Shown here: positions 458 through 56,027 of the stretch, piece by piece | Numbering within the stretch: the stretch's first letter is position 1 | Layout: each line of letters begins with the position of its first letter | From: Akkermansia muciniphila | GTDB lineage: Bacteria; Verrucomicrobiota; Verrucomicrobiia; Limisphaerales; UBA9464 | Assembly: GCA_945893185.1 (NCBI GenBank) | Contig: CAMDDW010000003.1 | Location: forward strand, 43,119-107,118 | Reading direction: 5' to 3' | Length of the DNA: 64,000 nucleotides | Made by a program: the position numbers and the translations under genes | Notes under the pieces: generated by a model | The model's database searches: none | Told to the model about the DNA's origin: nothing | Seen by the model: the letters and a program-made list of their open reading frames with translations, nothing else

Positions 458-558
458 TGACCGATATGAAAAGCTGCAGCGCGTGAAGGTACAAGCTCTT
501 TGTGGTCCAGATTTCCTGCAGAGAAAGCGCAGGATTCCGGGCGGGAATCCGGACGGCC

Positions 559-1677
559 TCAGCGCCGTTTAGACCGCAATTTCAAGGCACGCCGCAACTG
601 CGGTTCGAGCCCATTGGCACACCATTGGAAGCCCAGCGAGTTAGGATGCACCCCATCCACCAATCCCGAACCCTGAGAGCGCGACAGCATTTCGAGCCCA
701 TCCACGAACACAATCTCACGGTCTCCCGCTTTCCTCCGAGCGGCCACGAACTCGCGCGCCGACTTGCGCTTGCTCTCTTGTTGGGCATGGAACGAAGCCG
801 ATCCCGCCTCGGCCGGAAACCAAAACGGGCCCGTGACCAAGATCGGCGTGCGCGGATGCCGCCGGCGCACCGTGTCCACGAATCCAGGCAAGGTCTCGCG
901 GTAGACTTCGGGCGACGGGTTGGCCCAGTAGTCGAGCACGAAGGCCTCCGCGTCGATCTCCGCCACCGCCTCCGCCACGGCCGGCTCCCCGAGACCCGCA
1001 CCACTGAAACCCAAGTTGATGAAGTCGAGGTTCAGCGACCGACCCAAGATGGCCGGATAGCTCAGGCCCGAATTCTCGGCACAGCCTCCTTGCGTGATGC
1101 TCGAACCATAAAACACCACCGGTCGGGGCCGAGCCATCGGCGTCGGCGCAGCCAGCGTAGCCCCCGGGTCCAGCATCAGACGCTCAATGCTCACCGCCTT
1201 GTACAACGGCAGATACAACGTCACCTCCCGCATCGGGCGTCCCTCGCCCAGAGCCCACTCTCTCTGGATCAACCCCTTCGCATCAGGCCAGGCGCTGTTG
1301 CGATACTGGCCGTCGACATAGAGGTCGAAGCCGTTTTGGCCGACGCTGGTCATGTGGTGCATCGTCGACGCGTCCGGGTTCTTGGCCACCAGACCGAGAC
1401 GGGTCGAATCGGTCCGGAAGCGCAAACGGGCTCCGGAAGGATGCTGGGCCAAGCCCCACACGGCCGGACTCACCCGGTCCTTCACCCGCTCCGGCAGCCG
1501 GCGCAACACCGGCGCATCTTCTGCGAACCACCCCAGCCCCGCGACTTGGATCGGATCGCTGGGAACCCGCACCGAACGCGCCTCGGGAATCTCCCACAGC
1601 GACGCCCCCAATGCGTCCGAGACACCCCATGCGCTCGTCAGGGCCAGCCACAACGCCATCACCGAAGGCCCGGCCAT
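559..1677 (-). CDS. SGNH/GDSL hydrolase with GxDLY N-terminal domain (start uncertain, 1659-1725)
   Basis: GFDLY, FYGSSITQG, NLGFSG and DGVHPN motifs. Confidence 0.85.
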   Translation of the reverse strand: MAGPSVMALWLALTSAWGVSDALGASLWEIPEARSVRVPSDPIQVAGLGWFAEDAPVLRRLPERVKDRVSPAVWGLAQHPSGARLRFRTDSTRLGLVAKNPDASTMHHMTSVGQNGFDLYVDGQYRNSAWPDAKGLIQREWALGEGRPMREVTLYLPLYKAVSIERLMLDPGATLAAPTPMARPRPVVFYGSSITQGGCAENSGLSYPAILGRSLNLDFINLGFSGAGLGEPAVAEAVAEIDAEAFVLDYWANPSPEVYRETLPGFVDTVRRRHPRTPILVTGPFWFPAEAGSASFHAQQESKRKSAREFVAARRKAGDREIVFVDGLEMLSRSQGSGLVDGVHPNSLGFQWCANGLEPQLRRALKLRSKRR

Positions 1678-4609: not shown

Positions 4610-4857
4610 GGCTGCTCAGTGTGGTTAAACCCTGTTCCGTGGCATGGCAAGCGTCCAAGACTTGCCCCGACTGGAGACCGGCAGGAAACTGAATGCGTCG
4701 AGAGACCTTCCGATTTTTTGTGTCAGCTTCGGTTCTCGGCGACGAACCGCCCGGTTCCAAGCCTGTCCGGAGGCAATGCGGGTCTCCATGGAATCTGCGC
4801 CTACGGCATTTCCAAGCTCCCGCTTGTCGAGGACGGGCATTCCACTCGCGTGAAGAA

Positions 4858-4915
4858 ATGACAACCGTCATGGAGGCCTTATACGAGCAACGTTGGTTCA
4901 AACAACCGGCGTCCA
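4858..4915 (+). pseudogene. Truncated copy of the 7037 antitoxin N-terminus
   Basis: MTTVMEALYEQRWFKQP vs MKTVVEAVHEQGWLKPL, with a shared ~135-bp upstream region. Confidence 0.55.
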
Positions 4916-4992
4916 AGAGGCGAGGCTGGACGATCATGAACTGCTACCCGCCGCTGCCACGCCGAAGCCCGCACGGTTGCACGACGGGTAAA

Positions 4993-5313
4993 TCAGCGTG
5001 CATCCTCCTGAACTGGGTCTCCCAGAGACACGGTGTGGGTTTTCAAATCCAGGTGAAACGTCCTGACGTCGTCATGCTCCAGCCTCAATCGAACCGTGCC
5101 CGTCACTACAGTCCCCACAACCTGATAATTGAGGACTTCCTGACCCACCTTTTTGACACCTCCAGGAGCGATCAAGTAGCGGTGGCCACCTCGCGGAAAG
5201 TAAGTGTCCGTATAGCCCTCAGGTAAGGCGTGTGTCCGGGGCAGCTGCATCACAACAAACAGCACGGCAACGAAAACAACTCCCACTGCGATGCTGAGAG
5301 TCTTCGATTTCAT
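4993..5313 (-). CDS. Hypothetical membrane/secreted protein (cassette gene)
   Basis: N-terminal hydrophobic helix; begins just after the attC core site GTTCGGC. Confidence 0.65.
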   Translation of the reverse strand: MKSKTLSIAVGVVFVAVLFVVMQLPRTHALPEGYTDTYFPRGGHRYLIAPGGVKKVGQEVLNYQVVGTVVTGTVRLRLEHDDVRTFHLDLKTHTVSLGDPVQEDAR

Positions 5314-5328
5314 GGCGCGTGCAAAGTG

Positions 5329-5396
5329 GCCGAACAACCAAACTCAGCGACGGCCTCGGCCGTGGTGGTGGTGCGCACGTTGCGCTCGGGTTAGGC
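5329..5396 (-). other. attC site
   Basis: Minus strand GCCTAAC...GCTGAGTTTGGTT-GTTCGGC, 68 bp, between two co-oriented small ORFs. Confidence 0.65.
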
Positions 5397-5405
5397 GCGC
5401 AGGGC

Positions 5406-5663
5406 TTATCGAACGCTGCGTCTAAAACCCCGCCATACCGTCCTAACCTCTTCTCGCAGGCCACCGACGAACCACCCCATGACGCTACCCAGGGCCGCCG
5501 GCAAATAAAACGCGACGAACAAGGCCAACGAGACCAAACCGACAATGGGAATGAACGCAGCCAGTAGAAAAATTAACGCGACAACCAGCCACGCGACTAG
5601 CCCCGGTCTTCGCCGTCTGCTTTCCAGCGGTCCCCTGAACCGGATTGGATATTGTGTATTCAT
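5406..5663 (-). CDS. Hypothetical small membrane protein (cassette gene)
   Basis: Two hydrophobic segments; lies between an attI-like site and an attC. Confidence 0.6.
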   Translation of the reverse strand: MNTQYPIRFRGPLESRRRRPGLVAWLVVALIFLLAAFIPIVGLVSLALFVAFYLPAALGSVMGWFVGGLREEVRTVWRGFRRSVR

Positions 5664-5677
5664 CAGCGTCTCAAGTC

Positions 5678-5957
5678 GCATCACGTTGTAGGGGCCACCT
5701 CAAAGCAACCTAATTACTTAACTGGTCGAATCTGTCAACGTCCCCGCTGGGCGGCAACAGGAATCTCTCCTCCCTCATCGATGAGCGGGTTAGGCCCGGC
5801 GTTTGGCAAGGCTCTGACAAAACCTCACTAGCCGTCAGGCACCGGAGAAACTACAAGTTCATTGTGTCAGAGTGGGCATCGATCCAGGTCCCACTTACAA
5901 AAAAGGGGTGAATCCAAAATAAAAAATCGTTGCCTGACCCTGTTTCTGACCCCGTTT
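5678..5957 (-). repeat. attI-like site + linker + MITE-like module, copy A
   Basis: ~275-bp direct repeat of 11228-11505; ends in two CTGACCC repeat cores. Confidence 0.8.
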
Positions 5958-6002
5958 ACGATTCGTTGCCAAGAGCGGATCGCGTGACTCGATCCAGAGA
6001 GG

Positions 6003-6437
6003 TCAGCGAGAGGTCTGCCCATCGTAGAGCCTATCACGAAGGTCGGGGGCAAAGGCCGCGAAATGCCGGTAATTGAGAGTGTGGATTCGGTCCGCACCGC
6101 ATTTCCGGGCGGCTGCCAACAAGAGGACATCGTAGATGGCTCCGCCTCTGGCTCCCACGGAAGCGGCGGTCTTGAGCGCGGCCGCAATCTCAGCCGGGGT
6201 CAACGACACCAGTGTCAGCCGCTTAGCCACATTAACGTACACCATCTCCGCCGCGATCGCGGGAGTCAGGCGGGAAGTGATTCGACCGCCCGTCAGGATG
6301 GCAAAACATTCCGCCAAGGAATGGGTCGAGGCATATCCATCCCGGGTAGATGAAAGCGCAGCCAAAGCCGTCTCATGGCCGGATTCATCCTCGACCATCG
6401 CGGCCAGAAGACTGGAGCTGTCGAAAAAGTCTCTCAC
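6003..6437 (-). CDS. vapC: PIN domain toxin
   Basis: FFDSSSLLA...AIYDVLLLAAA...TLNYRHF. Confidence 0.85.
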   Translation of the reverse strand: MRDFFDSSSLLAAMVEDESGHETALAALSSTRDGYASTHSLAECFAILTGGRITSRLTPAIAAEMVYVNVAKRLTLVSLTPAEIAAALKTAASVGARGGAIYDVLLLAAARKCGADRIHTLNYRHFAAFAPDLRDRLYDGQTSR

Positions 6438-6685
6438 GGCCGCAATTCCCTCGTGGCCGCGATCGCTGCTACGGCATCGAAGATTTTGCCTGTGCGCGGC
6501 ACCACCATCAGTCCGGATTTGCGTCGCAGCTCCGGCCCGGGCGGCTCCACCGGGGTCAGTTCCAACCGGTTGCCCACCAGAGCGAATCGCAGTACCGATC
6601 CAGACGAGAGATGCAGCAGCCTGCGGATTTCCTTGGGGATCACCAGCCGGCCACTTCCATCCATAGTAATCATGGTATCAGTCAT
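6434..6685 (-). CDS. AbrB/MazE-family antitoxin (start uncertain)
   Basis: ITMDGSGRLVIPKEIRRLLHL; ATGA overlap with the PIN gene. Confidence 0.85.
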   Translation of the reverse strand: MTDTMITMDGSGRLVIPKEIRRLLHLSSGSVLRFALVGNRLELTPVEPPGPELRRKSGLMVVPRTGKIFDAVAAIAATRELRP

Positions 6686-6784
6686 GGCATCAGTCATGGC
6701 ATTGTTCATGGTATAAACCGTGGCACCGACTATGGCAGGTGGCAATCCTGCTCAATTCGTGAGTTGGAGATAAACCTCTTTATG

Positions 6785-6832
6785 CCCTCCAACGGAGTCT
6801 TCGATGACAATGAAAAGTTCCGGGCGGTTCTG
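6785..6832 (-). pseudogene. Short remnant of a second DUF6036-like gene
   Basis: QNRPELFIVIEDSVG vs KDRPELSIVIEGSIG; DNA similarity to 4101-4147. Confidence 0.5.
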
Positions 6833-7036
6833 CCGGCCATACGACCTGCGGCAGCGCGAGCAACTCCTGCGTCTTGGTCCACGCCTGCACGCTGCACATC
6901 GTCAGCTTCGGTTCTTAGCGAGGATCCGCACGGTTCCGAGCTTGTCTGGCGGCAATGAGGGTCTCCACAGAATCTGCACCCATGGCGTTTTAAAGCTCCC
7001 GCTTGTCGAAGGTGGGCATCCCGTTAACTTGCCTGC

Positions 7037-7252
7037 ATGAAAACCGTCGTGGAGGCCGTACACGAACAGGGTTGGCTCAAGCCATTGAAACCCCTGTTGC
7101 TGCCGGCGCACTCCCGCGTGCAGTTGACGTTGACGGCGGAGGCTGCTGAAGACGGCGGACGTCAAGAATGGCTCATCCAATCGGAGCGCTCGCTGATGCA
7201 GGTGTGGGACAACCCGGCTGACGATGTCTTCAATGTGCTGCTCAAGAAATGA
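7037..7252 (+). CDS. AF2212/DUF104-like antitoxin
   Basis: MKTVVEAVHEQGWLKPLKPLLLP...WDNPADDVFN; overlaps the mazF-like gene. Confidence 0.7.
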   Translation: MKTVVEAVHEQGWLKPLKPLLLPAHSRVQLTLTAEAAEDGGRQEWLIQSERSLMQVWDNPADDVFNVLLKK

Positions 7253-7478
7253 TGTCGTCCTGCTGCCGATCCCATTCACAGACCTCAGCCGCAGCAAGGT
7301 CAGGCCCGCCATCGTTGTGGGATTAGGTTCGTTTCCTGGCGACCTCTTCGTGGTTCCGATCACGTCCCAAGCGTTCAACTGGGATGTTCCCGTCAAGGAA
7401 TGGCAACTGTCCGGGCTCAACGTGCCGAGCGAAGTGAAAGCGCAACTGGCGACAGGACCCCGTTGGCCGGCAACCTGA
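7224..7478 (+). pseudogene. mazF: PemK/MazF toxin, C-terminally truncated by a repeat unit
   Basis: DVVLLPIPFTDLSRSKVRPAIVV...VVPITSQ; the last codons come from the repeat at 7457. Confidence 0.75.
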
Positions 7479-7517
7479 ATCTCTCTTCCCTTATCGATTA
7501 GAGTGAGTCAGGGGTCC
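7457..7517. repeat. ~60-bp GACCCC...GGGGTC linker unit, copy D
   Basis: Closely similar to 10390-10448. Confidence 0.8.
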
Positions 7518-7741
7518 TTTGAGTTGCCAATCCGTCGGGTGTTCATGGATGTCGGCCCGTATCGCGGGATAAACCTCGGTGAAACCGTCGTCTTATCGGC
7601 TGTCGTAGGCGTCCAAGCGTGCCCAAACTGGCTCGAATTCATCGTCCCAAGCATCGCACTGGACGAGAGCATCCATCTCGCGGGCTGCCCGGTTACGGGA
7701 CCTGTCCCGGCATCCATTGCGGTCCATCGACCGCTGTGATC

Positions 7742-7760
7742 AACTAGTCAAAGACTGGTT
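7742..7760. promoter_or_regulatory. Probable TA autoregulatory operator
   Basis: Near-palindrome AACTAGTC-AAA-GACTGGTT just upstream of the phd-like gene. Confidence 0.5.
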
Positions 7761-7778
7761 AATTTAGGAACAAACACC

Positions 7779-8042
7779 ATGGCCACCATCACCGCTTTTG
7801 AAGCCAAGACCCGGTTCGGCGAACTCCTCGACCGCGTCGGCCGCGGCGAGGAAATCGTCATCACCCGGCACGAGAAGCCCGTCGCCCGCATCGTTCCCGA
7901 AGGTCTGCGGAACCTAGAGCATGTTCGTCAGGCGGTATCGGCGCTGCACGAGGTCCGCCGCCGGATCGCCAGCCGGACCAAGGGACGCGGAAAGCTGTCG
8001 GACGCCGATGTCCGGTCCGCCATCGAAGAAGGACGGCCCTGA
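7779..8042 (+). CDS. Phd/YefM family antitoxin
   Basis: ITAFEAKTRFGELLDRVGRGEEIVITRHEKPVARIVP. Confidence 0.92.
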   Translation: MATITAFEAKTRFGELLDRVGRGEEIVITRHEKPVARIVPEGLRNLEHVRQAVSALHEVRRRIASRTKGRGKLSDADVRSAIEEGRP

Positions 8043-8458
8043 TGGACCGCCTGATCGTGGACGCATCAGTGGCCATCGCGTGGGTGCATCCCGGCCAGGC
8101 GACCCCGGAAACGGACGCGTTGCTGGCCGAGATCAACGAGGGTGCCATCTTGGTCGTTCCCGCCCTCTGGCCGGTTGAGACGGCCAATGCACTGGTGGTG
8201 CTCGAACGCCGGAAGAAGCTGACGGCGGAGGAGCGCGACGACGCTCTGGCCGCGCTGCGCGGACTGGCATTCGAAACCGACCATGAAATGTCGGTCCTGG
8301 CCTTCACCAAACTGGCGCAACTGGCCGCCGATAATGCCTTGAGCGTCCATGACGCCGCCTACCTAGAACTGGCCGTGCGCTTGAAGATACCCCTCGCCTG
8401 CAAGGACGGTCCGCTGCGCGAAGCGGCAAAACGCCGCCGGGTTCCATTGCTGCCCTGA
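8042..8458 (+). CDS. vapC: PIN domain toxin
   Basis: LIVDASVAIAW...LSVHDAAYLELA...LACKD. Confidence 0.92.
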   Translation: MDRLIVDASVAIAWVHPGQATPETDALLAEINEGAILVVPALWPVETANALVVLERRKKLTAEERDDALAALRGLAFETDHEMSVLAFTKLAQLAADNALSVHDAAYLELAVRLKIPLACKDGPLREAAKRRRVPLLP

Positions 8459-8822
8459 GGCGGGGCCGGTGGCGTAAGGTTTCAGTTCCGTGGCATACTG
8501 CGCCCCGGAGGACTGTCCATGTCGGTCGAATTTCGGGAGTGGAATGGATTGCGGATGAGGTTCTTAGCAGGCGCGTCCGAACCGGTGTGGCTGATGGCCG
8601 AAATTGCCCGAACTGCCGCAGGTCCCCGAAACAAACTTCAGACCACGATACCGCCGCCGTAGCCGGGAACCGCCGGTCTTCCGTGATTGAACAATTCAAC
8701 CGAGCACGGAGTTCCGGCGACGGTCATCACGGTCCCGAAGAGAAGGTTTGCCCGATGTCGCCCGTTTTCCGTTCCCGTTCGCGCGTTGCGTCCCCACGGC
8801 GAATTCACTCATCCCCGGGCTT

Positions 8823-8888
8823 GTTTAACCAAGGGTGTAGTTGCTGGCTTCGCTCCGCTTCGCAGCAATACACCCTTTATTGTTAGGC
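8823..8888 (-). other. attC site (last of the array)
   Basis: Minus strand GCCTAAC-AATAAAGGGGTGTATTGCTG...CAGCAACTACACCCTTG-GTTAAAC; long imperfect palindrome. Confidence 0.8.
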
Positions 8889-8898
8889 GATGGTCTCA

Positions 8899-9222
8899 TC
8901 ACTTAATGTCCTCAAAGACTCTGCAGCAGCCATAAACTGCAAACACGATGAAAAGCCCGATGAGCGTCAAACCCAGAAAGCCCATGACTCTGTCCAAAAT
9001 CGGTCGCGGCTTCAAAGTCTGTGGGGGGTGAACGTCTGCCACCACTATTGTCTGAAAATCGAAACCTGCCTCACTGCCAATCGTAGCCTGCCCCTTCTCC
9101 AGCGCCTCATCAATCTTGCCTCGTAGATACACCAGCCCGTCGCGACTCGCCGTGAACGACTCCGACGGGTCGCCAAATCTGTCATAGGCTGTTCCCCAAG
9201 CTGGTGGGATGTCTTTCTTCAT
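8899..9222 (-). CDS. Hypothetical protein with C-terminal TM helix (cassette gene)
   Basis: ORF bounded by attC sites. Confidence 0.7.
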   Translation of the reverse strand: MKKDIPPAWGTAYDRFGDPSESFTASRDGLVYLRGKIDEALEKGQATIGSEAGFDFQTIVVADVHPPQTLKPRPILDRVMGFLGLTLIGLFIVFAVYGCCRVFEDIK

Positions 9223-9236
9223 GCGCGTGCGAAGTC

Positions 9237-9309
9237 GCCTAACGCTTGAACTAAGTGGCCACATCAATCGCGAAGCGATTGATTGGTCCGCTTGAGTGAA
9301 CTATTAGGC
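9237..9309 (-). other. attC site
   Basis: Minus strand GCCTAAT...ATCAATCGCTTCGCGATTGAT...GTTAGGC, 73 bp. Confidence 0.85.
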
Positions 9310-9315
9310 CACATG

Positions 9316-9660
9316 TCAGAGCGCATCACACAAGCTCTCCAATCCCTCGGCTCGAAATCGAGCGAGAATTTCTGGGTCAGTGCCGCAGTAGCGGATAGCT
9401 GCGATGCACGAACATCGTGCTGCCTCTATAACAAGAGCAAGCTCGTCTGCCGTCTCTGGTTGCTTCTCGACGCGACAATGCGTCGGGCACGTTTCTCCGC
9501 ACCTGCGCTGAAGCGTTTCCTGACTCCACGTGATATTGGCTGGCGCCAACTCCGGTGGCAGCGCGCAAAGGAGACACTGGTCCTTGATGACGTAAAATGG
9601 ACCGGGCGCGTTGTCCGGTTCTCGCTCGAACTTCGGGCTAACTAGCGGGTAATCGCGCAT
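9316..9660 (-). CDS. Ferredoxin-like protein (cassette gene)
   Basis: NAPGPFYV...CLLC...AP...KQPET..E...SCIAAI pattern. Confidence 0.65.
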   Translation of the reverse strand: MRDYPLVSPKFEREPDNAPGPFYVIKDQCLLCALPPELAPANITWSQETLQRRCGETCPTHCRVEKQPETADELALVIEAARCSCIAAIRYCGTDPEILARFRAEGLESLCDAL

Positions 9661-9673
9661 AGTGCGTAATGTG

Positions 9674-9799
9674 GCCTAACGACAGAGGTGAGCGACCGCC
9701 GCTGGCCGGGAAGGTGGAGCCCACGAGGCGCTCTCGAACTGCCTCCCAGCCTCGAACGGAGAAGCGGGGCAGCGGTTCGTCTCCACCGACTGGTTCGAT
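9674..9799 (-). other. attC site
   Basis: Minus strand ATCGAAC...GCGGTCGCTCACCTCTGTC-GTTAGGC, 126 bp; ATCGAAC is complementary to the cassette start GTTCGAT. Confidence 0.9.
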
Positions 9800-9807
9800 G
9801 TCTTGTT

Positions 9808-10314
9808 TCAGTGCCATGGCGACTTGGTAGGAGAGCCACTCGAACCGGCGTATCCCCATTCTGATTTCCAACCGCGTAGTCCGCCAATCTCGGTCTCGTG
9901 GAAACCTTGAACCCTTCCGTAGTCGGATGCAACCTCGAACACAACTTTTACCGGCTGCTTGCCCTTGTCACGGAGATGAGCAGCCAGCTCGTCTGAATAC
10001 TCTCCGATGTAGTGGCCAGGAAAATCCACAAACGTCAGAACAACCTCCGACTCCTTCATGCCGTTGGAGGAACTCGGTTTGGTCTCCCACGACATCATGT
10101 ATTCGCGAACCTCCTTCTGATCTATGAATGGCCCGACACCAGTCAGGAACAATGTGAAAAGCACTGTAAAGAGCAGCGCGGAAAAGAGAGTCACGTTCCC
10201 TTTCTTGAATCTTGTATTGGCCAACCAACACACGAGCAATGAAAGGCCAATAAACAAGGGCAGGCCTCCGATAAACAAGAACGGGCGGACGTCGATGTAG
10301 GCGAGGAGCGTCAT
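9808..10314 (-). CDS. Hypothetical membrane protein (first cassette)
   Basis: Two N-terminal TM helices; starts about 19 bp after the core site. Confidence 0.75.
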   Translation of the reverse strand: MTLLAYIDVRPFLFIGGLPLFIGLSLLVCWLANTRFKKGNVTLFSALLFTVLFTLFLTGVGPFIDQKEVREYMMSWETKPSSSNGMKESEVVLTFVDFPGHYIGEYSDELAAHLRDKGKQPVKVVFEVASDYGRVQGFHETEIGGLRGWKSEWGYAGSSGSPTKSPWH

Positions 10315-10326
10315 TTTCCGGTCTTC

Positions 10327-10440
10327 ATCGAACGTTGTTTAGACCGCCTAAACGCAGTCTAATTTTCCCATTTTGACGAAATTATCAATGACCCCGTTGG
10401 CCGGCAACCTGAATCTCTCCTCCCTCATTGATGAGCGAGT
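10327..10440 (-). other. attI-like site + linker, copy B
   Basis: Minus strand TTAGACTGCGTTTAGGCGGTCTAAACAAC-GTTCGAT; compare the class 1 attI1 end CTAAAACAAA-GTT. Confidence 0.7.
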
Positions 10441-10601
10441 CAGGGGTCCGGGAACGATTTCCGAATTTGACTCAGGCGGGTGTCAGCAACTTTCGCCCAA
10501 TGCCTGGGCAAGAGCCTGTTTAGGTTGCGGGTCCCTTTACCGAGTTCTGGGCAAAGGGATCTGGTGCTTCCAAAATCGGAAATCGTTCCCTGACCCCGTT
10601 T
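10441..10601 (+). mobile_element. ~160-bp MITE/REPIN-like element with RAYT-type ends
   Basis: Inverted terminal repeats; interior homologous to 54176-54337 and 57932-58093. Confidence 0.8.
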
Positions 10602-10663
10602 GCGGAGCGCGGTCCGTGGCAATTCGATTCATTCGCTGTAGCGCTGAGCCCGGATCAGCGATT

Positions 10664-10921
10664 TTATTCATAATGGTAGCGAACTTGCGCAACCTTAATG
10701 ACATTATCTTCAACTCTGTAAACCAACCGATGTTCGTCCGTAATTCGACGAGACCAAAATCCACTTAAGACATGCTTTAATGGCTCAGGCTTACCGATGC
10801 CTTCGTAGGGATTGCGAGAAATATCCCTCAGTAAATCATTAACCTTTTTGAGAATCCTCTTATCAAAATTCTGCCAATATACGTAATCTTCAAATCCACG
10901 AGATGAAAACTGAATGTTCAT
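10664..10921 (-). CDS. yoeB: Txe/YoeB toxin
   Basis: GIGKPEPLKHVLSGFWSRRITDEHRLVY. Confidence 0.95.
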   Translation of the reverse strand: MNIQFSSRGFEDYVYWQNFDKRILKKVNDLLRDISRNPYEGIGKPEPLKHVLSGFWSRRITDEHRLVYRVEDNVIKVAQVRYHYE

Positions 10922-11178
10922 TTCATGAGTTCGTCGATGGACTTCGTAATACCACCGCTTCCCTTTAAATCCGAAATTGAATCAAGAAGGCGACGGGCGT
11001 TTGCAGGCGAACGAAGAAGATAAGCAGTCTCCTCAAGTGATTCATAATCCTCAAGCGATATCATCACAACGGCTTGATCGCGATTACGAGTGATGATCAC
11101 TGGATCATGATCCAAGCAAACACGATCCATCGTTGACGCAAGGCTTTCCCGTGCAGCGGTGTAGGTGATCGCTTTCAT
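10918..11178 (-). CDS. yefM: YefM antitoxin
   Basis: ITYTAARESLA...SLEDYESLEETAYLLRSPANARRL. Confidence 0.95.
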   Translation of the reverse strand: MKAITYTAARESLASTMDRVCLDHDPVIITRNRDQAVVMISLEDYESLEETAYLLRSPANARRLLDSISDLKGSGGITKSIDELMK

Positions 11179-11179
11179 A

Positions 11180-11197
11180 TGGACAATAACCTGTACA
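11180..11197 (-). promoter_or_regulatory. YefM-YoeB operator
   Basis: TGTACA-GGTTAT-TGTCCA: two TGTACA-type cores 12 bp apart, as in the E. coli yefM operator. Confidence 0.6.
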
Positions 11198-11221
11198 TGC
11201 CGCCACAAATGTCAAGTTTTC

Positions 11222-11505
11222 TTCCAACGATCGTTGTTGAGGCCACCTAAACGCGGCCTCATTTCCCCGGTTTTCGAACGTCTCAACTCCCCGTTGGGCG
11301 GCCACCTGAATCTCTCCTCCCTCATTGATGAGCGGGTCAGGCCCGGCGTTTGGCAAGTCTCTGAGGCAACCTCCCGACCCGTCAGGCACCGGAGAAACTA
11401 CCAGTTCATTGTGTCAGAGTGGGCACCGATCCAGGTCCCGCTGACAAAAAAGGGGTGAATCTAATTCGGAAATGGTTCCCTGAGCCCGTTTTTGACCCAT
11501 TTTTT
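11222..11505 (-). repeat. attI-like site + linker + MITE-like module, copy C
   Basis: Direct repeat of 5678-5957; minus strand TGAGGCCGCGTTTAGGTGGCCTCAACAAC-G. Confidence 0.8.
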
Positions 11506-11575
11506 GTTTTCCTGGGTTTGGGGATAGTTGCTGGCAGCTCTTGATGGAGATCTCCGGGTGGCTACGCTTCGGTTC

Positions 11576-13522
11576 ATGATCCCGAACAGAGTTCCTTCAC
11601 GGTATTCTGTTCCAAGGCGATCTGAGGGACCCACGGCCGGTGCCCTGGCATCGAAGGCCCGCAAGGCCCGATGGACGGAAGGGCTTCTCGCAGTGGTGCT
11701 TGTGGCATCGGTGGTGTCGGTCCGATTCCAATCCAGGCGGGTGGATGGAGCGAACTCTGGTTCGGCCACCCAAGAATCCAAGGTGGACGATTCGAGCGCC
11801 ACCGAACGAAACCAATCTCCGGTGTCCGTCGAATCGGGTTTGGGCACCGAACAGGTCCTTCGGCGGCTCGCGGCCATCGAGTCGATGACACAGGATCCCG
11901 AGGAGCGAGTCCGGCTCATCAAGGAGTTGATCCGAAGCGCCGATCTCAAAGCCTCCGGTTGTGGAGCCGCCTTCTGGGATTTCGCCCTCAGCAAACTGAC
12001 GCCCGAAACAGGCTTGGAGGCCGTCCTGGATACCCTGGGTCGATCGTGGGGCACCGCCGACCGATCCGCAGCCTGGGCCTTCCTGATGAACCCCGAACGC
12101 ACGTCGGTCGATCCTCATGACAATTTGGGTGGCTCCCAATTCGCGGCGCTGAAGGGGCTGCTTTTGGAATGGATGAGTTCGGACCTACCGGGAGCGCTTG
12201 AGCAGGCCCGATCGGTGGCGCAACCGGTGCATCGGATGAGATTACTGATCAATCTCTATATCCAATGGTTGGCGAGCGCACCGGAAGACGCTTTGGCAGG
12301 ATTCTCCACTGAAACCTTCGAAGATGGAGTGGGAGGGCTCAAAACCTGGATCCTCTTCATGGTGCTTGTCGAAGAGAAGCACCCATCGCTCGTGCCGAAA
12401 CTGTTGGATTCAATTCCGCGCGAGGTGTGGACCCATGCCGGTGATACGGAAGAGGGGTCCCGTGAGTTGGATTGGATCTCCCATCGGCCGCGACTGGGGG
12501 CGGCCATCCTCGAGCGACTGCCTGAGCCCATCGCTCGTCCTCTGGTGAGTTCGCTCGTGCGTAGTTGGACGTACGCCGAGCCGCTGGCGGCCCTGGACTG
12601 GTTGTTGGATCATTCGAAGTTGGAGGCGACGGAGCCTCGGGTCCTGGACAACCTGTTCGAACGCTTGGCTCATGTGGACCCGAAGTCTGCAGTCCACCGG
12701 TTCGAGCGGATATCCGCCGAGATCCAAAGCCAATGGGCTCCAACCCTCACGGCCGAATGGGCCGCCCAAGATCCCAGAGCAGCAATGGACTGGGCTCAAG
12801 CGAGATGGCAGCAGGGCCGAGGGATTGAACCTCTCCTCCGAGGGACCGAGGCTTGGGTGAAAACCGATCCCGCCGCAGCCGCAGCGTTCCTCCAAGAGAT
12901 CCTGCCCATAATCACCCAAGCCTCAGAGCGACTCGAACTGGCCCAACTCTGGGTCACCGCCGACCCGTCGGCCGCGTTGGATACCTTCCGTACCCTGGCT
13001 CCAGCTGAGACCCTAAATGCCCGGCTCAACCAAGCCTTGCCGACGGCTGCGGCGGCCGACCCTCTGGCTGCTGCCAGCGCCGCCCTGATGATCAGCGACC
13101 CGGTTGTCCGCGGACAAACCGTGGCCAAGGTGGGATTCCAATGGGGCTCTCGCCGTCCGGAAGAAGCCATAGACTGGGCTGCTTCACTGCCGAAAGGCGG
13201 CGAGCAATCGATGGCGATCCGCAACATCTACCGGGCTTGGGGCATCAACCAGTTCGAGAGTGCGACCGCGTCGCTGGGGCGACTCGAACCCGCCCTGCGA
13301 GTTCAGGCGCTGATCGGTATCATCCATGAGCGCATGAACAACTCACCCAGCGCCGCCGCCAGCCTGGGGCTGCGGGTCAACGATTCCCAGACCCGTGCCG
13401 AGTTGCTCGACTCGGTCTTCCACCGCTGGGGGCGTTCCAATCCGGTCGAGGCCTCCGCGTGGCTGCAGAAGTCAGCCCTCCCTCAGGCCCTTCAAACCCA
13501 ACTCAAAGCACGGATTTCTTAG
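11576..13522 (+). CDS. Hypothetical membrane-anchored helical-repeat protein
   Basis: N-terminal TM segment and recurring W...DPxAAxxW repeats, common in Verrucomicrobia. Confidence 0.7.
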   Translation: MIPNRVPSRYSVPRRSEGPTAGALASKARKARWTEGLLAVVLVASVVSVRFQSRRVDGANSGSATQESKVDDSSATERNQSPVSVESGLGTEQVLRRLAAIESMTQDPEERVRLIKELIRSADLKASGCGAAFWDFALSKLTPETGLEAVLDTLGRSWGTADRSAAWAFLMNPERTSVDPHDNLGGSQFAALKGLLLEWMSSDLPGALEQARSVAQPVHRMRLLINLYIQWLASAPEDALAGFSTETFEDGVGGLKTWILFMVLVEEKHPSLVPKLLDSIPREVWTHAGDTEEGSRELDWISHRPRLGAAILERLPEPIARPLVSSLVRSWTYAEPLAALDWLLDHSKLEATEPRVLDNLFERLAHVDPKSAVHRFERISAEIQSQWAPTLTAEWAAQDPRAAMDWAQARWQQGRGIEPLLRGTEAWVKTDPAAAAAFLQEILPIITQASERLELAQLWVTADPSAALDTFRTLAPAETLNARLNQALPTAAAADPLAAASAALMISDPVVRGQTVAKVGFQWGSRRPEEAIDWAASLPKGGEQSMAIRNIYRAWGINQFESATASLGRLEPALRVQALIGIIHERMNNSPSAAASLGLRVNDSQTRAELLDSVFHRWGRSNPVEASAWLQKSALPQALQTQLKARIS

Positions 13523-13861: not shown

Positions 13862-14035
13862 TCATGCCTGAAGCTCGCACCTGACGATTGGATCCCTGTT
13901 AGCGGCCGGGAGAGCGGTGTCGCCGATGAGATTGGATGCTGGGCAGACAACCGTCTTGTCGTACTGCCTCCACACAGGCGCAGTCGGCTCGTCGGCGAAA
14001 TAGGCGAGCCACGCCGATGAATCCACCACGTTCAT
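13862..14035 (-). pseudogene. vapC: Truncated PIN/VapC toxin
   Basis: MNVVDSSAWLAYFADEP start, then similarity is lost; stops after 57 aa. Confidence 0.7.
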
Positions 14036-14238
14036 ACTCGGTCGCCCTCGCGAACAAATGAAGTATCGATGCCTTTGAGATAACCACGCAACGCTCGCAC
14101 ATCCCGAATGGGGATGACCTCAATGCGATTGCGGAAGGCCAATACGCGTGCTTTTTCTCCAGAGCGAAGTCCCATGGACTCCCTGATCCGCTGAGGGATG
14201 ACGATTTGGAACCTTGGCGAAATGGTCACAGTTTCCAT
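14032..14238 (-). CDS. AbrB/MazE-family antitoxin
   Basis: METVTISPRFQIVIPQRIRESMGL. Confidence 0.9.
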   Translation of the reverse strand: METVTISPRFQIVIPQRIRESMGLRSGEKARVLAFRNRIEVIPIRDVRALRGYLKGIDTSFVREGDRV

Positions 14239-51476: not shown

Positions 51477-51581
51477 ACCCCCTAAGGCAGCAGAATCGCC
51501 GCACAACTCAAGGCAAAGGGGGGTTACGCAGGTGAGAAACACGAGCGAAGTTTCCGATGGACCGACGACACCCCGGCCAAC

Positions 51582-51711
51582 ATTAAGCGCGACACCCTCC
51601 ATCGATGCATCGACCACCTCTGGCAAGAGCATCTCTACGGGATGGATTGGCTGCGCAACTCCATCGGCCTGCGCGCCCACGGCCAGCCGGATCCGTTCAT
51701 CGAGACAAGAA
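51582..51711 (+). pseudogene. secA: Internal fragment of secA (scaffold/IRA1 region)
   Basis: [32 protein letters not shown] resembles the SecA consensus IDxxWxEHLxxMDxLRxxIGLRxYGQxDPLIEYK. Confidence 0.75.
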
Positions 51712-51782
51712 AAGGGGTCAGGAAAGGGAGGAAAGGCGTCAGTTCTTGATATTGTTACAAAAGGGGTCAGTTCTTGATATTG
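51711..51782. repeat. Second family of GGGGTCAG end repeats (tandem)
   Basis: AAAGGGGTCAGG, AAAGGCGTCAGTTCTTGATATTG, AAAGGGGTCAGTTCTTGATATTG. Confidence 0.75.
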
Positions 51783-51783
51783 G

Positions 51784-51945
51784 TTACTCCCCGCCCAGCT
51801 TCCTCTGGCGATACAAGAAATGGTTCAGATAAGCGCGGGTGCCCATCGTCAGCCGCTCGGCGATCCACCCCACCGTCATCGTCGTCTCCGCCCGCAAGCG
51901 CGCCGCCAAAGCCACCTTCACTGAATCCCCGTTGGAAGCGTGCAG
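51784..51945 (-). pseudogene. C-terminal remnant of a second RAYT-type transposase
   Basis: GDSVKVALAARLRAETTMTVGWIAERLTMGTRAYLNHFLYR; aligns with GDLRRVAVAWAVYRRTSLRQSWIADRLGL of the intact RAYT. Confidence 0.75.
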
Positions 51946-51988
51946 TTTATCCGAGATCGAAGGCCAGGATTTCCAACGGAAGCTTCAG

Positions 51989-52017
51989 AATTCGGAAATC
52001 GTTCCATGACCCCGTTT
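51989..52017 (+). repeat. RAYT-end repeat copy
   Basis: AATTCGGAAATCGTTCCATGACCCCGTTT. Confidence 0.85.
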
Positions 52018-52054
52018 CTGTTTCGATTACGAACTGAGGATCTTACCGCTCGAG

Positions 52055-52479
52055 GTGAAGAAGTCGTTTTATTCTCTCGATGCCGAAAAGTGGCAGATGT
52101 TCAATGACATACCCTATGATAGATGTCCCTGGCTTGTGTGGGGAACTCCCGCCGTGGGCACGGTGAAATCGTCATCCGAAACAGGCGAGCCTATCTTGAG
52201 GGTGAACCAATTTGCTGGCGGCGCGGAGTTTTCGGAAATAATCGAACGTGATGGATTCGACTTCGTAAAGGTTAAGATTTTAATTACTGGGATTCTGATC
52301 TTGGAATTAAATATCTACCAAGCGAAGAAATAGTGATCGAATTGGCCGAAATCGACTTTCCGGGAACTGAAAATGAATGGATAGAATCATTGAATAGATT
52401 CAAAGAAGGAGACAGTGAGTTTATCGAATGGATGATTAGTTTCGCGAAGATTAGATTAACCAGCTCAAGGCGACCCTGA
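52055..52479 (+). pseudogene. AT-rich hypothetical gene, apparently frameshifted near 52280
   Basis: The 92-aa ORF continues in a second frame (NYWDSDLGIKYLPSEEIVIELAEIDF...) to a TGA before the attC. Confidence 0.5.
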
Positions 52480-52509
52480 AGAGTCGATGGGATTTCGAGT
52501 GACATGTAC

Positions 52510-52569
52510 CGCTAACACTCACATCCAGCGGACTTCGCTTTGCTACGCCGCTGATGTGAAGCTTTCGCT
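52510..52569 (+). other. attC site with degenerate core
   Basis: CGCTAAC-ACTCACATCCAGCGG...CCGCTGATGTGAAGC-TTTCGCT. Confidence 0.7.
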
Positions 52570-52585
52570 GAAAAGATTGAGTCTG

Positions 52586-52840
52586 ATGCCACGATTCCTG
52601 CAAAGAGAGTATTTTCGGCACACGCGCCAGCGACCCGACCGGGTCGGAATCAAGGATGAATGGATTGAGCGCGTCATCGAACATCCCGAATCAGAGAAGA
52701 TTTAATCAGATGGACGCATTCGACGATGGGCACGGATTTCTGACTCTTAGATTCGGGCATTACGAGTTATTCTTTTGGGAGACTCCCCAACCGTACACAA
52801 TCCTTTCTTTGACCGTGATTATGAGGATAAAAACAAATGA
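52586..52840 (+). pseudogene. Putative toxin (DUF4258-like) with two in-frame stop codons
   Basis: EWIERVIEHPESEKI*SDGRIRRW...*IRALRVILL...TVHNPFFDR; stops at 52703 and 52748; ATGA overlap with the next gene. Confidence 0.65.
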
Positions 52841-53061
52841 AAATCAAATATTTTGAAGATACCGGCACCGCTCTCCTTGAGTTTGGGGGTGGTACTCCTG
52901 CCGAGACCCGGGAGCTATCGGAGGACATTTATTTGGGCTTAGACGAGTCGGGCCATGTGGTTTCCAACACCGTAGAGCACGCAAGCATCCGAGGTGATTT
53001 ATCTGAATTCAGCTTCAAGAGAATAAACAAAGCGGACGAGGTCGTGGAGCCAACGCGCTAA
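52837..53061 (+). CDS. DUF2283-like putative antitoxin
   Basis: MKIKYFEDT...LDESGHVV..TVEHAS. Confidence 0.7.
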   Translation: MKIKYFEDTGTALLEFGGGTPAETRELSEDIYLGLDESGHVVSNTVEHASIRGDLSEFSFKRINKADEVVEPTR

Positions 53062-53089
53062 CGCGCGCGGTTGACGACTAATGTTGGCC
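53031..53089 (+). other. attC site (59 bp)
   Basis: AGCGGAC-GAGGTCGTGGAGCCAACGCGC...GCGCGCGGTTGACGACTAAT-GTTGGCC. Confidence 0.75.
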
Positions 53090-53158
53090 TCCGAAGTCCC
53101 CCCGGCGAGCCGAAATCACCTGTTGCGGGGGCAGCACGACGTCGGCAAGATCACCTTC

Positions 53159-53365
53159 ATGCGACATGCCATCATCTATCCTGGCGAGGATGGTTTCTGG
53201 GTTGCGGAGTGTCCCAGCTTGCCGGGTTGCATTTCCCAGGGGGAGACCCGCGAGGCTGCGATCAGCAACATCCGTGAGGCCATTGAGGGCTACGTCCGTG
53301 CGCTCCGGGAGGATGGTATCGAGGTTCCTGAGGAGCGATTTGAGGCACTTCTGGTCGCTGTATGA
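53159..53365 (+). CDS. hicB: HicB family antitoxin (short)
   Basis: WVAECPSLPGCISQGETREAAISNIREAI. Confidence 0.92.
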   Translation: MRHAIIYPGEDGFWVAECPSLPGCISQGETREAAISNIREAIEGYVRALREDGIEVPEERFEALLVAV

Positions 53366-53583
53366 GCAAACTTCCTCAGGTGTCAGGCCCCGAGTTGGTC
53401 CTAGCACTTGAGAAGCTTGGGTTTTCGGTCCGTCGTCAGCACGGCAGCCACATCATTATGCGACGAGATGACCCATACGCGCAGACTGTAGTCCCAAACC
53501 ACCGTCAGATCGATCGAGGCACTCTGCGCGCCATCCTCAGGCAGATCGGGATTACTCCTGAGCATCTCACGTCGTTATTGTAG
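53362..53583 (+). CDS. hicA: HicA family toxin
   Basis: LEKLGF..RRQHGSH...VVPNH..IDRGTLRAILRQ. Confidence 0.92.
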   Translation: MSKLPQVSGPELVLALEKLGFSVRRQHGSHIIMRRDDPYAQTVVPNHRQIDRGTLRAILRQIGITPEHLTSLL

Positions 53584-53589
53584 GAAATA

Positions 53590-53677
53590 GTCCAACCATT
53601 GCGTCCTGCGAACGGCGGTTGAGCCCACTGTTCCAGGACTGACCCGATCTCCGTCGTCGCAGACCCAGGGGTTAATC
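53590..53677 (+). other. attC site
   Basis: GTCCAAC...GTCCTGCGAACGGCGG...CCGTCGTCGCAGAC...GTTAATC, 88 bp. Confidence 0.75.
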
Positions 53678-53685
53678 CTTATATT

Positions 53686-54168
53686 ATGCACACACGCTAT
53701 CTAAGAATCTCGATTGCCGCCGCTTTCTTTCTGTCGGTGCTTTATTCCATCCACGGAAGCGAGCCGCCGGCTCAGTGGAAGAAAGTCGATGCGAAGCGGT
53801 TTTCATTTTTTATTCCGCCGGACATGAAACTCGTTCCGACCCGCGGAATCGACTCCTACGTTGAGAGCTACCGCGGAACGAACATCGACTTGAGCTTCGA
53901 CTACGGGCCTTACCCTGATTCCCTGAACCCCTATAAGAACTTCCCTGGCTCCGTCACGAAGACATTGAAAATCGACGGCAAAGAGGCGCTACAAGTGTCA
54001 TTCACCAATTCAAGCACGTCTGGATACCGTTTCGATCAGGTTATCGCAATCCACTTTCGCGACTTGGGTGACGGAGGAAACAAGCAGACGCTGTGGGCGA
54101 CATGCCGCACCAAAGAACATTATTCGGCTGTTGAACAGATATTCTCTACTCTTCGTTTTAACAAGTGA
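53686..54168 (+). CDS. Hypothetical secreted protein (cassette gene)
   Basis: Signal peptide; starts 8 bp after the attC core. Confidence 0.75.
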   Translation: MHTRYLRISIAAAFFLSVLYSIHGSEPPAQWKKVDAKRFSFFIPPDMKLVPTRGIDSYVESYRGTNIDLSFDYGPYPDSLNPYKNFPGSVTKTLKIDGKEALQVSFTNSSTSGYRFDQVIAIHFRDLGDGGNKQTLWATCRTKEHYSAVEQIFSTLRFNK

Positions 54169-54175
54169 CACAGGG

Positions 54176-54337: not shown

Positions 54338-54418
54338 CACTAACAAAGCACTGAGCTTAAACGTTGGTCGAAGTGTGTAAGAATGTGTAAACAACAAGAA
54401 AGTAAGAGACCAGAAGCA

Positions 54419-54856: not shown

Positions 54857-56027
54857 AACGGGGTCAGGGAACGATTTCCGATTTTGAATCAGGCGGGATC
54901 TAGCTACTGTTAACCCATGCCTCGACAAGTCCGCATTGAGTTTGAGGGCGCCCTTTACCATGTGATGGCACGTGGCAATCAGCGCAACCGCATCTTTGCC
55001 TCGCCCGACGGGGGCGATGAGAGCCTGTTCTTGGAAACCCTGGGCGAATGCTGCGAGCGTTCCGGCTTCCGAATCTGGGCATGGGTCCTGATGGGCAATC
55101 ATTACCACCTCCTCGTCGAGACACCCTCGGCCAATCTGGTCGCCGGCATGGCTTGGCTCCAAAACACCTACACGCGACGCTTCAACTCCCGCCACCGCCA
55201 ATGGGGACGCCTTTTCGGCGACCGCTACAAGTCGGTCCTCATTGAATCGGGCAGACCCGACGAAACGGGCGGCGACTTATACCTGCAGACCCTTCTCGAC
55301 TACATTCACCTCAATCCAGTTCGAGCCGGGTTGGTGCCGACCGAATCATTCCAGGGGCTGATGGACTATCCTTGGAGCAGCCTCGTCCAGGCCTACGCCG
55401 TGGCACCCGAGGCACGGGCTCCGTGGATGGCGGTGACCGACGGTCTCGCGCTCTTCCGATGCGAGGACAGGGCGGCGGATCGCCGACAGTTTGTCGAACG
55501 TCTCGAAGGCCGATTGAAGGCTGAAGCCGCGGAAGCGTGCGGTTTATCCGAGATCAAAGGCCAGACTCTGCGGAGCACCTTGAGGAAAGGTTGGTATTGG
55601 GGAGGAGAATCCTTCAAGGAGACGCTTCTTCAAAAACTCGAAGGTCTCAAAGGGAGCTCCATGCCTGTGGCGAAGGATTTCCGCAGCAGCGATCAGGCAC
55701 GGGACCATGACCACTGGGACGGTGAACGGATCATCTCCGAGGCAGTGCAACAGTTCGCCCTGAAAAGCGGCCGGCGCGAGGAGTTTACGGCGCTGCCGCG
55801 TGGAGATCTACGGCGGGTCGCGGTGGCTTGGGCCGTATATCGGCGCACCTCGCTGCGGCAATCATGGATCGCAGACCGACTCGGATTGCGCAGCGGTGAC
55901 AACGTCTCGGCGCAGGTCCGGAAACTCTCCACACGGCCAAGCGAGGAACTTTCACCCGAGATCCAAGCGTGGATGAAGGCCTTCGAATGAAGCCAGCCAA
56001 AATCGGAAATCGTTCCCTGACCCCGTT
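54857..56027 (+). mobile_element. RAYT element with perfect 30-bp inverted ends
   Basis: AACGGGGTCAGGGAACGATTTCCGATTTTG (54857-54886) and reverse complement (55998-56027); extra degenerate copy at 54827-54854; no target duplication seen. Confidence 0.85.
54917..55990 (+). CDS. REP-associated tyrosine transposase (Y1 HUH, IS200-like superfamily) with C-terminal HTH-like region
   Basis: MPRQVRIEFEGALYHVMARGN, HUH motif NHYHL, LFGDRYKS, DYIHLNPVRAG, YPWSS. Confidence 0.92.
   Translation: MPRQVRIEFEGALYHVMARGNQRNRIFASPDGGDESLFLETLGECCERSGFRIWAWVLMGNHYHLLVETPSANLVAGMAWLQNTYTRRFNSRHRQWGRLFGDRYKSVLIESGRPDETGGDLYLQTLLDYIHLNPVRAGLVPTESFQGLMDYPWSSLVQAYAVAPEARAPWMAVTDGLALFRCEDRAADRRQFVERLEGRLKAEAAEACGLSEIKGQTLRSTLRKGWYWGGESFKETLLQKLEGLKGSSMPVAKDFRSSDQARDHDHWDGERIISEAVQQFALKSGRREEFTALPRGDLRRVAVAWAVYRRTSLRQSWIADRLGLRSGDNVSAQVRKLSTRPSEELSPEIQAWMKAFE

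Follow-up and report, generated by a model that had tools for sequence, protein, structure and literature searches.

What kind of site stands at the head of gene cassettes in an array that encodes no integrase? The question is raised by a 64,000-nucleotide stretch of contig CAMDDW010000003.1 (assembly GCA_945893185.1, positions 43,119 to 107,118; hereafter the window), from a freshwater Verrucomicrobium whose assembly (G000) is 72% complete. It carries three related minus-strand repeats, sites A, B and C, which the original prediction, made from these letters, described as solo attI-like sites, each heading cargo and tied to the end of a RAYT-related repeat. PMC3146285 describes attI as one simple site, to which direct repeats may be added; according to PMC4889954, no attI is known for most integrons, nor can one search for it.

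The answer that we favour, with moderate confidence, is that these are integron-type site-specific recombination sites built like attI, at which cassettes have been exchanged at a G, the integron integrase (IntI) having been lost or acting in trans. As judged by comparison, the sites appear attI-like in structure and attC-like in placement.

Results

Three homologous repeats with a co-varying hairpin

Sites A, B and C were recovered where predicted, from the sequence itself, against shuffles and by covariance model (Table 1). They share one plan: the purine leader GGGAAA comes first, followed by a hairpin (stem of 9 bp, loop GTTTAG), ACAAC and finally a G; the similarity ends at the G, as had been proposed, and the copies are unlike beyond it. 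On the minus strand (a slash marks the junction throughout), site B reads TTAGACTGC-GTTTAG-GCGGTCTAA-ACAAC-G/TTCGAT, site C TGAGGCCGC-GTTTAG-GTGGCCTCA-ACAAC-G/ATCGTT and site A TTAGGTTGC-TTTGAG-GTGGCCCCT-ACAAC-G/TGATGC. A covariance model from 27 sites matched B with E 7e-17, C with 1e-15 and A with 7e-9; the 23-nt core pattern occurs twice in the window versus 0.00 expected, and a 27-nt linker (up to 3 mismatches) three times versus 0.00 expected, with 0 of 100 shuffles. A, B and C are homologous repeats rather than chance matches.

Between B and C the stem arms differ yet stay complementary, again as predicted, through two fully compensated pair changes (T-A to G-C and A-T to G-C). Over the 27 sites the stem pairs in 91.8% of cells, versus 20–46% with the partner column slid, and two stem pairs carry double changes (13 cells) with a covariation score reached by 0 of 500 shuffles; since the sites are related to one another, this shuffle control overstates the case. 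On the cassette-sense strand, G-T wobbles occupy two positions of the stem, so that the opposite strand forms a weaker hairpin. Site A has decayed, and its orthologue with the same cargo (G006:C199) has decayed even more, which fits sites that are not maintained everywhere any more.

The core, GYCTAAAC-AAC-G/TTRRRY in the 27 aligned sites, resembles attI1 and attI3 of plasmid records, in line with the attI-like label: the attI1 core is CCCTAAAACAAAG/TT and the attI3 core GATAAACCACAAG/TT, versus GGCCTAAACAACG/TT here. Extended outward, attI1 (NC_009838.1) reads GTTATGG...GTTACGC...GCCCTAAAACAAAG/TTAAAC, attI3 (LC778123.1) ...CAGATAAACCACAAG/TTAGGC and the site here GGCCTAAACAACG/TTAGGC, or in full TTAGGC-TGC-GTTTAGG-TGG-CCTAAAC-AAC-G/TTAGGC, which keeps the box order of attI1 in a compact form. 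What is shared with attI1 and attI3 is one simple site with inverted boxes around a G/TT crossover, whose arms pair here in 71.6% of cells versus 10–47% when slid. Upstream, TTAGRC and GTTTAGG lie in the sense of R', with GTTGAGA about 56 nt upstream in the linker family; they are candidate counterparts of the GTT-type direct-repeat boxes of attI, which vary among classes.

Upstream, a linker of about 70 nt is common to types A to D, D being a copy that is truncated in the window and of full length in relatives G022, G015, G019 and G006. A search for a Pc-like promoter in this linker had been suggested; a scan of 5300–11600 found no sigma-70-like promoter in it, the one promoter-like site lying outside the linkers. 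A small open reading frame (ORF) in the linker was considered and rejected, its frame not being conserved between types.

Cargo changes at the G

We collected at least 102 distinct sites with enough flank from the window, the loci of relatives, a genome scan and a metagenome scan. The family was found solely in metagenome-assembled genomes (MAGs) of related Verrucomicrobiota and in lake metagenomes: a 30-nt pattern gave 16 stretches with one genome per species, all in MAGs labelled Verrucomicrobiota (3 labelled Akkermansia, label unchecked), and 119 stretches in the metagenome scan. Genomes carry 1–6 copies, several per array. By upstream module the sites divide into a linker type (33), "fam2" (34) and an "L041 type" (29), plus six singletons or pairs, and each of the three families joins 16–19 different downstream sequences (56 overall). 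GTT stands at the junction in 83 of 102 sites, and an ORF opens within 70 nt of the G in 56 of 56 downstream sequences (median 20 nt), a weak test in GC-rich DNA. The cargo, comprising YefM, PIN, immunity proteins, GNAT and many small ORFs of no known family, is typical of cassettes.

In seven related genomes, orthologues of B and D keep constant upstream DNA and differ in cargo, which starts GTTCGAT, GTTAGGC, GTTAGAC, GTTCGAC, GTTGGGC or GTTAGAG. B-type upstream DNA consists of a REPIN (an inverted pair of repetitive extragenic palindromic, or REP, arms) with vapBC in G022 and G010 and a REPIN with YefM-YoeB in G000 and G002; downstream stand five different sequences, starting from the G as GTTCGAT, GTTAGGC, GTTAGAC or GTTCGAC, the orthologues with other cargo being those of G022, G002, G010 and G006. 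D-type sites close a 1.4-kb unit (94–95% conserved) after which four different sequences come. This unit starts with TTAAAC directly behind an attC of the 8823–8888 type in G022 and G006, the two relatives that keep one; in G015 and G019, which have no attC before it, similarity begins about 10 nt further in.

The most telling junction evidence comes from two cassettes that each stand behind different site families and break exactly at G/TT. In contigs of other lake populations, furthermore, what follows the G of site C is the 122-aa (run X6) or 114-aa (run X15) cassette in place of YefM-YoeB, with joints at 11232 and 11235. The swapped cargo of orthologues, the two cassettes and these joints support the proposal that the G is an integration point: on comparison of sequences alone, it is the apparent recombination junction at which cassettes are exchanged, and cassettes seem to be received at G/TT as at attI.

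Cassettes with ordinary attCs and units that end in a site

We called attCs by our own reading of sequence and fold rather than by IntegronFinder. A strict RYYYAAC...GTTRRRY scan returned the attC at 8823–8888 and one coding-region match; a looser finder was noisy in GC-rich DNA, and only its matches with GCCTAAC-type ends were used. Cassettes behind the sites carry ordinary attCs, and one beside a site-bound cassette (L081) shares 77 of 94 positions with the attC that comes first in a complete integron of the genus, which indicates that the chemistry is that of integrons. With at least two canonical attCs less than 4 kb apart (8823–8888 and 9237–9312) and no intI in window or assembly, the island resembles a CALIN (cluster of attC sites lacking an integron integrase; available text of PMC4889954), but CALINs as defined there consist of attC only, whereas the island adds attI-type sites at several cassette boundaries.

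The sites themselves stand where an attC would, at the 3' end of a cassette with G/TT on both sides, in the D cassette, in a unit shared by loci L081 and L091 and in further inter-site segments. What precedes the shared unit (103-aa ORF, 215-nt module and site) is a canonical attC in L081 and a further site in L091; the downstream flanks also differ, which implies that the site travels as the 3' end of a cassette.

Because some units also have an attC-like R''-L'' half directly after the ORF, a rival explanation that we regard as unlikely keeps some weight: the sites would be the 3' ends of non-canonical, very long attCs that recombine as a folded single strand, with an R''-L''-like half after the ORF, a long variable middle often invaded by REPINs, and the hairpin and core acting as L' and R'. 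In two units the non-coding part starts GGTCTAAC-TTTGC-GCTCCATCGAAC or GGTTAAAC-CATAC-GCTGCATCGAAC, resembling the 5' half of the local attC family, GGCTAAC-CATGC-GCTCAAGCGAAC; the placement of the sites at the end of ORF-bearing, G/TT-bounded units, the co-varying hairpin arms and the variable upstream context also agree with it. Folding does not. The 120-nt elements show no end-to-end fold (z −0.2 to −2.0, versus −3.2 to −4.85 for local attCs), and alifold of the three families on both strands gives a terminal hairpin only. The 309-nt L091 unit has 0 end-to-end pairs on its top strand, and the 10 in the minimum free energy fold of its bottom strand, which has no shuffle control, are not convincing. 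Moreover, the box on the 5' side of the hairpin reads TTAGGC rather than GCCTAAC, a polarity unfit for R'', and the G-T wobbles favour the hairpin on the cassette-sense strand and become A-C mismatches on the bottom strand, the one used by attC sites. A second simple site and an overall imperfect inverted repeat, the other marks of attC structure, are likewise missing from the sites.

Separately, attC interiors vary. The ORF of a small membrane protein cassette (MKHER...) occurs with three attC interiors that diverge directly after R'' GGCTAAC (L096 67–417, L081 2031–2411 and L143, reverse strand), and a joint of 8889 to 9304 in run X15 likewise exchanges an attC interior; such swaps suggest exchange at R'' as well as at R'.

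Search for an integrase

That no intI lies near the three sites within 6 kb was predicted correctly: IntI above the curated cut-off was found neither in the window nor elsewhere in the 72%-complete assembly. A tblastn search with three IntI proteins of relatives reached only Xer-like genes elsewhere in G000, all window matches having E above 0.6. IntI above the cut-off occurs in 20 of 61 relatives. Strong matches to the site model occur in 13 of 24 genus genomes, five of these 13 being at least 92% complete. Among the ORFs upstream of the second-locus sites, a Pfam scan for a recombinase gave only an extracytoplasmic function (ECF) sigma factor and PIN.

The integron of G007 was considered as the island's source and rejected, as it occupies a different chromosomal locus, homologous to G000:C60. 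A tblastn match in metagenome contig L096 (727–2066) was also set aside: it is a generic tyrosine recombinase beside an IS91-like transposase (assigned by eye from its translation), inserted just inside the start of the D cassette, with no link to the site. The attI regions beside real intI genes (G036, G018, G032 and G035) have, by eye, a small hairpin directly before GTTRRRY. In that of G018 (G018:C206, locus L035, about 500–720, reverse strand), three direct repeats of ATAGGCGAAACCCA precede the small hairpin and GTTAGGC; they are candidate IntI-binding repeats.

The 13 site-bearing genus genomes lacking IntI, five of them at least 92% complete, lend some colour to an improbable alternative, in which a non-IntI tyrosine recombinase, for example a Xer-like one, would act on the sites as double-stranded core sites of the classical type (inverted 7-bp arms GCCTAA and TTAGGC, with a 6-bp overlap, ACAACG). 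Xer-like enzymes are encoded by every one of these genomes, that of G000:C1 being 33–35% identical to IntI; the inverted arms pair around the junction as given above; and the available text of 10.1101/2022.09.11.507474 describes attG, the double-stranded genomic sites, as closer to dif-like core sites. Yet no recombinase gene is linked to the arrays, the L096 enzyme adjoining its transposase instead, and the entering cassettes carry folded attCs of the same family as the complete genus integron. We know of no recombination of folded attC sites by an enzyme other than IntI.

REP elements and their relation to the sites

The original prediction placed a miniature inverted-repeat transposable element (MITE) upstream of each site and tied it to RAYT. 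The tie to a RAYT-associated REP holds; the element at B is a 159-bp REPIN, while A and C have a single REP arm and a shared 125-nt segment. G000 holds 63 REP-like arms, with 159-bp inverted pairs on several contigs. A RAYT-like ORF of 357 aa with an N-terminal Y1 (IS200-like) domain, flanked by perfect inverted REP arms (54857–56028), is the source of this REP family. Short palindromic repeats of 22–30 nt, in inverted pairs and flanking a Y1 (HUH) transposase gene, are as in known REP/REPIN-RAYT systems; the likeness accounts for the neighbour of the sites only. RAYTs are usually described as single copy per genome, and the 13 Y1-transposase matches in this assembly exceed that.

A REP stands within 300 nt on the upstream side in 52 of 96 sites and on the downstream side in 0 of 98; by family, the upstream counts are 26 of 33 for the linker type, 26 of 31 for fam2 and 0 of 27 for the L041 type. 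This association is genuine, although it may have begun with only three insertions that were later inherited; because the L041 family is free of REP and has the same junction behaviour, REP is not needed for that behaviour.

This one-sided association, together with the 13 Y1 matches, could be taken to mean that a single-strand transposable unit of RAYT or IS200/IS605 type ends on the right in the hairpin and ACAACG and on the other side in REP, the cargo being a mere flank of each insertion. IS200/IS605 ends do have a hairpin a few bases from a sharp boundary, and the outer REP flank is AAAC or GAAC in 37 of 63 copies. We consider this very improbable: apart from the REP-free L041 type, orthologous sites keep their upstream flank and change downstream only, so that no whole unit is seen to move; the supposed flank is itself a cassette, which opens with TTRRRY, the integron consensus, and has an attC of its own; and the REP hairpin (GGAACGATTTCC) is unlike the site hairpin.

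Least credible of all is a conserved regulatory leader (5' untranslated region, operator or terminator) without site-specific recombination, in an island varying by homologous recombination and deletion, for although ORFs start 10–53 nt after the G, the linker contains a perfect 12-bp palindrome (CTCATCGATGAG) and REP copies or the 180-nt direct repeat described below hold many of the joints seen in other populations, the same cassette breaks to the base at G/TT behind unrelated upstream modules, GTT predominates at the junctions, no Rfam family matches, and the linker has no promoter-like site.

Layout of the island

The features are collected in Table 1. The island is a low-GC region at 3.7–14 kb of the window (GC 0.47–0.60 versus 0.61 window-wide), flanked by an EamA transporter gene on one side and a vapB/truncated-vapC pair on the other, and its synteny is kept in seven other species of the genus. 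It encodes four toxin-antitoxin modules (PIN/MazE 6003–6745, AF2212-like/MazF 7037–7478, YefM/PIN and YefM/YoeB), a DUF6036 nucleotidyltransferase and several small ORFs without a Pfam family. Rfam gave 0 matches over the whole window at gathering scores and, on seven site loci with E up to 1, one spurious microRNA match and nothing else. Contigs from an RNA library (X15) span the island; they do not reveal transcript ends.

Table 1 Positions of the sites, cassettes and repeat elements in the window.
Feature	Position	Strand	Remarks
attC-like GCCTAAC...GTTCGGC	5337..5405	-	read by eye; fold unsupported, z −0.26
92-aa ORF	5406..5684	-	starts directly behind site A; ORF reading, Pfam scan
Site A	5678..5723	-	degenerate, broken stem; junction G 5684, then 92-aa ORF; 41.5 bits
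Linker of A	5724..5794	-	repeat comparison, shuffles
125-nt A/C segment and REP-like arm (5917–5945)	5795..5945	-	upstream of site A; repeat search
Linker of D	7456..7513	-	cut off at 7456, hairpin and core lost; adjoins and truncates MazF-like ORF 7224–7478 (+)
D cassette	7514..8828	-	starts TTAAAC behind attC 8823–8888; carries YefM/PIN (7779–8458, +); ends in D linker/site; 94–95% alike in four relatives
attC GCCTAAC...G/GTTAAAC	8823..8888	-	canonical; end-to-end fold, z −3.2 and −3.6
Two cassette ORFs, 122 aa (8899–9267) and 114 aa (9316–9660)	8899..9660	-	neither with a Pfam family
attC GGCCTAAT...GC/GTTAGGC	9237..9312	-	canonical; R''/R' paired end to end, z −4.85, 0/200 shuffles
Probable long attC, R' GTTAGGC 9674–9680	9674..9800	-	end-to-end fold no better than shuffles, z −1.05; joint 9681 in X15
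First cassette ORF behind site B, 168 aa	9808..10314	-	no Pfam family
Site B	10327..10372	-	arms 10354–10362 and 10339–10347, ACAAC 10334–10338, junction G 10333, R' remainder TTCGAT; 66.6 bits
Linker of B	10373..10442	-	contains CTCATCRATGAG, GGGAGGAGAGATTC, GGTTGCNGGCCAAC, GTTGAGA
REPIN, 159 bp	10443..10601		27-nt inverted REP arms, GGGGTCAGGGAACGATTTCCGA; repeat search
YefM-YoeB toxin-antitoxin pair	10664..11208	-	between sites C and B; PF02604 9e-24, PF06769 1.5e-38
Site C	11226..11271	-	leader GGGGAAA, arms 11253–11261 and 11238–11246, loop GTTTAG, ACAAC 11233–11237, G 11232, then ATCGTT; 62.6 bits
Linker of C	11272..11340	-	repeat comparison, shuffles
125-nt segment common to A and C and single REP arm (11466–11487)	11341..11491	-	segment 90% alike; repeat search
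RAYT-like gene (54917–55990) with REP arms 54860–54881 and 56003–56024	54860..56024	+	Y1_Tnp, PF01797; outside the island

Several further rearrangements were observed. A 180-nt direct repeat (78% alike; 4722–4901 and 6901–7080) brackets a 2.2-kb segment with PIN/MazE, site A and two cassettes; runs X5 and X15 have contigs without this segment (joint 4765 to 6970), and the modules stand in a different order in G022. The vapC (PIN) gene beside the island (13960–14123) lacks its middle, the loss lying between two copies of GAGCCGACTGCG; the gene is still complete in G022 and G010 (compared at L014 7950–8350 and L017 9600–10000). Six tandem 12-nt units (TCATGGCATCAG-like) lie at 6658–6737, at the 5' end of the MazE-like ORF 6434–6745. 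A second low-GC variable region (51500–58100) contains small ORFs, an MliC-like gene, an SASA esterase and at least seven REP arms, with no hairpin-core site.

Discussion

In the explanation that we favour, each site would be a simple site composed of the inverted integrase-binding box GYCTAAAC, the spacer AAC, the crossover G/TT and then the TTRRRY of the incoming cassette, with the same-sense boxes TTAGRC and GTTTAGG upstream, of which TTAGRC would pair with the inverted box into the 9-bp hairpin. On comparison, circular cassettes with ordinary folded attCs have been inserted or deleted at the G, making the sites the heads of short cassette runs in a CALIN-like, intI-less array. The site travels with upstream DNA (a toxin-antitoxin pair or a small ORF, and a 70–215-nt non-coding module) in a unit bounded by G/TT on both sides, and recurs within arrays because it moves as part of such a cassette-like unit. 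The enzyme would be an IntI like those of other species in the genus, acting in trans or since lost, and would use the site as double-stranded DNA. In-array copies may have arisen when site-carrying circles recombined with attCs, and a separate RAYT-linked REP or REPIN may have entered the non-coding module a few times and then been carried along.

A number of results weigh against this explanation. Homologues beside intI, which the original prediction led one to expect, were found in 0 of 61 relatives and 81 family genomes, and in 0 of 38 genomic loci (235 kb) and 118 metagenomic loci (278 kb) that carry the site. IntI above the cut-off is encoded by 0 of the 13 site-bearing genus genomes, and the IntI-bearing G007, G009 and G018 are without the site. 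The covariance model, run with filters off on 16 intI loci, reached at best 9.9 bits (E 1.5, the attI region of G032), and the 150-nt upstream modules, compared with intI loci by blastn, shared with them only chance words of 12–14 nt. Placement is a second difficulty: the sites recur in tandem within arrays (21 distinct inter-site segments, 460–4472 nt apart) and behave like attC as the 3' ends of cassette-like units. The term "solo attI" thus stands as to attI-type structure and fails as to a platform-like role. At the junction itself, GTT gives way to GATCGKT in 12 C-type sites and to GCTRGCA in six that stand first in the second locus, and site A also departs from it; the X6 and X15 joints each come from a single contig whose shorter side, 28 and 25 nt respectively, falls under the 30-nt caution line. 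The context 350–750 nt upstream varies too, the clusters upstream versus downstream numbering 7 versus 11, 7 versus 13 and 13 versus 13. Finally, co-varying hairpin arms are not expected of a purely double-stranded protein-binding site.

Set beside known systems, the sites share with attI, as far as sequences tell, that they receive attC-bearing cassettes and head cassette runs. They differ in position, attI lying upstream of and next to intI with one per integron, whereas here three lie within 6 kb without intI and others stand several per array on cassette-like units; and they differ in having a co-varying hairpin made by the 5' box together with the inverted box, and in that their model misses the attI of IntI-bearing relatives. 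Like attC, they follow a cassette ORF, have the junction G/TTRRRY, repeat directly along arrays and form genus-specific sequence families, as the Vibrio cholerae repeats (VCRs) do in Vibrio; unlike attC, they have 110–250 nt of conserved, non-palindromic sequence upstream, besides the lack of a second simple site and an end-to-end fold. Related themes include attI1 x attI1 recombination, ancestral double-strand IntI activity, pdif modules, and IS1111-attC and group IIC-attC elements. A further parallel is attG, in the available text of 10.1101/2022.09.11.507474 double-stranded sites outside the platform where IntI inserts cassettes, to whose GWT consensus the C-type GAT conforms; as described there, attG sites are numerous and barely conserved (GWT), whereas the sites here have a conserved 36-nt structure at few fixed loci.

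A bolder proposal, which we put forward tentatively and hold to be possible rather than probable, is that the cassette system of this lineage uses a double-stranded attI-type simple site, not a folded attC, carried by many cassettes, arrays being built and reshuffled through exchanges of attI-type x attC or attI-type x attI-type, with an integrase elsewhere or lost, or a Xer-like enzyme. If true, such a system would be a living intermediate between classical core-type sites and single-stranded attC chemistry.

We found no description of such sites in the literature searched, subscription papers lying outside the search. The family described here is a conserved attI-type site family that was defined by comparison alone and marks cassette junctions to the base; arrays hold several copies of it, and it has been kept in genomes that lack an integrase. 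Should the sites prove active, double-stranded sites can serve to organise cassette arrays, a cassette unit can bring its docking site with it, and the intI-less arrays of uncultured lake bacteria join cassette traffic. With this family, moreover, the question of how attI and attC originated from classical core sites can be put to a concrete substrate.

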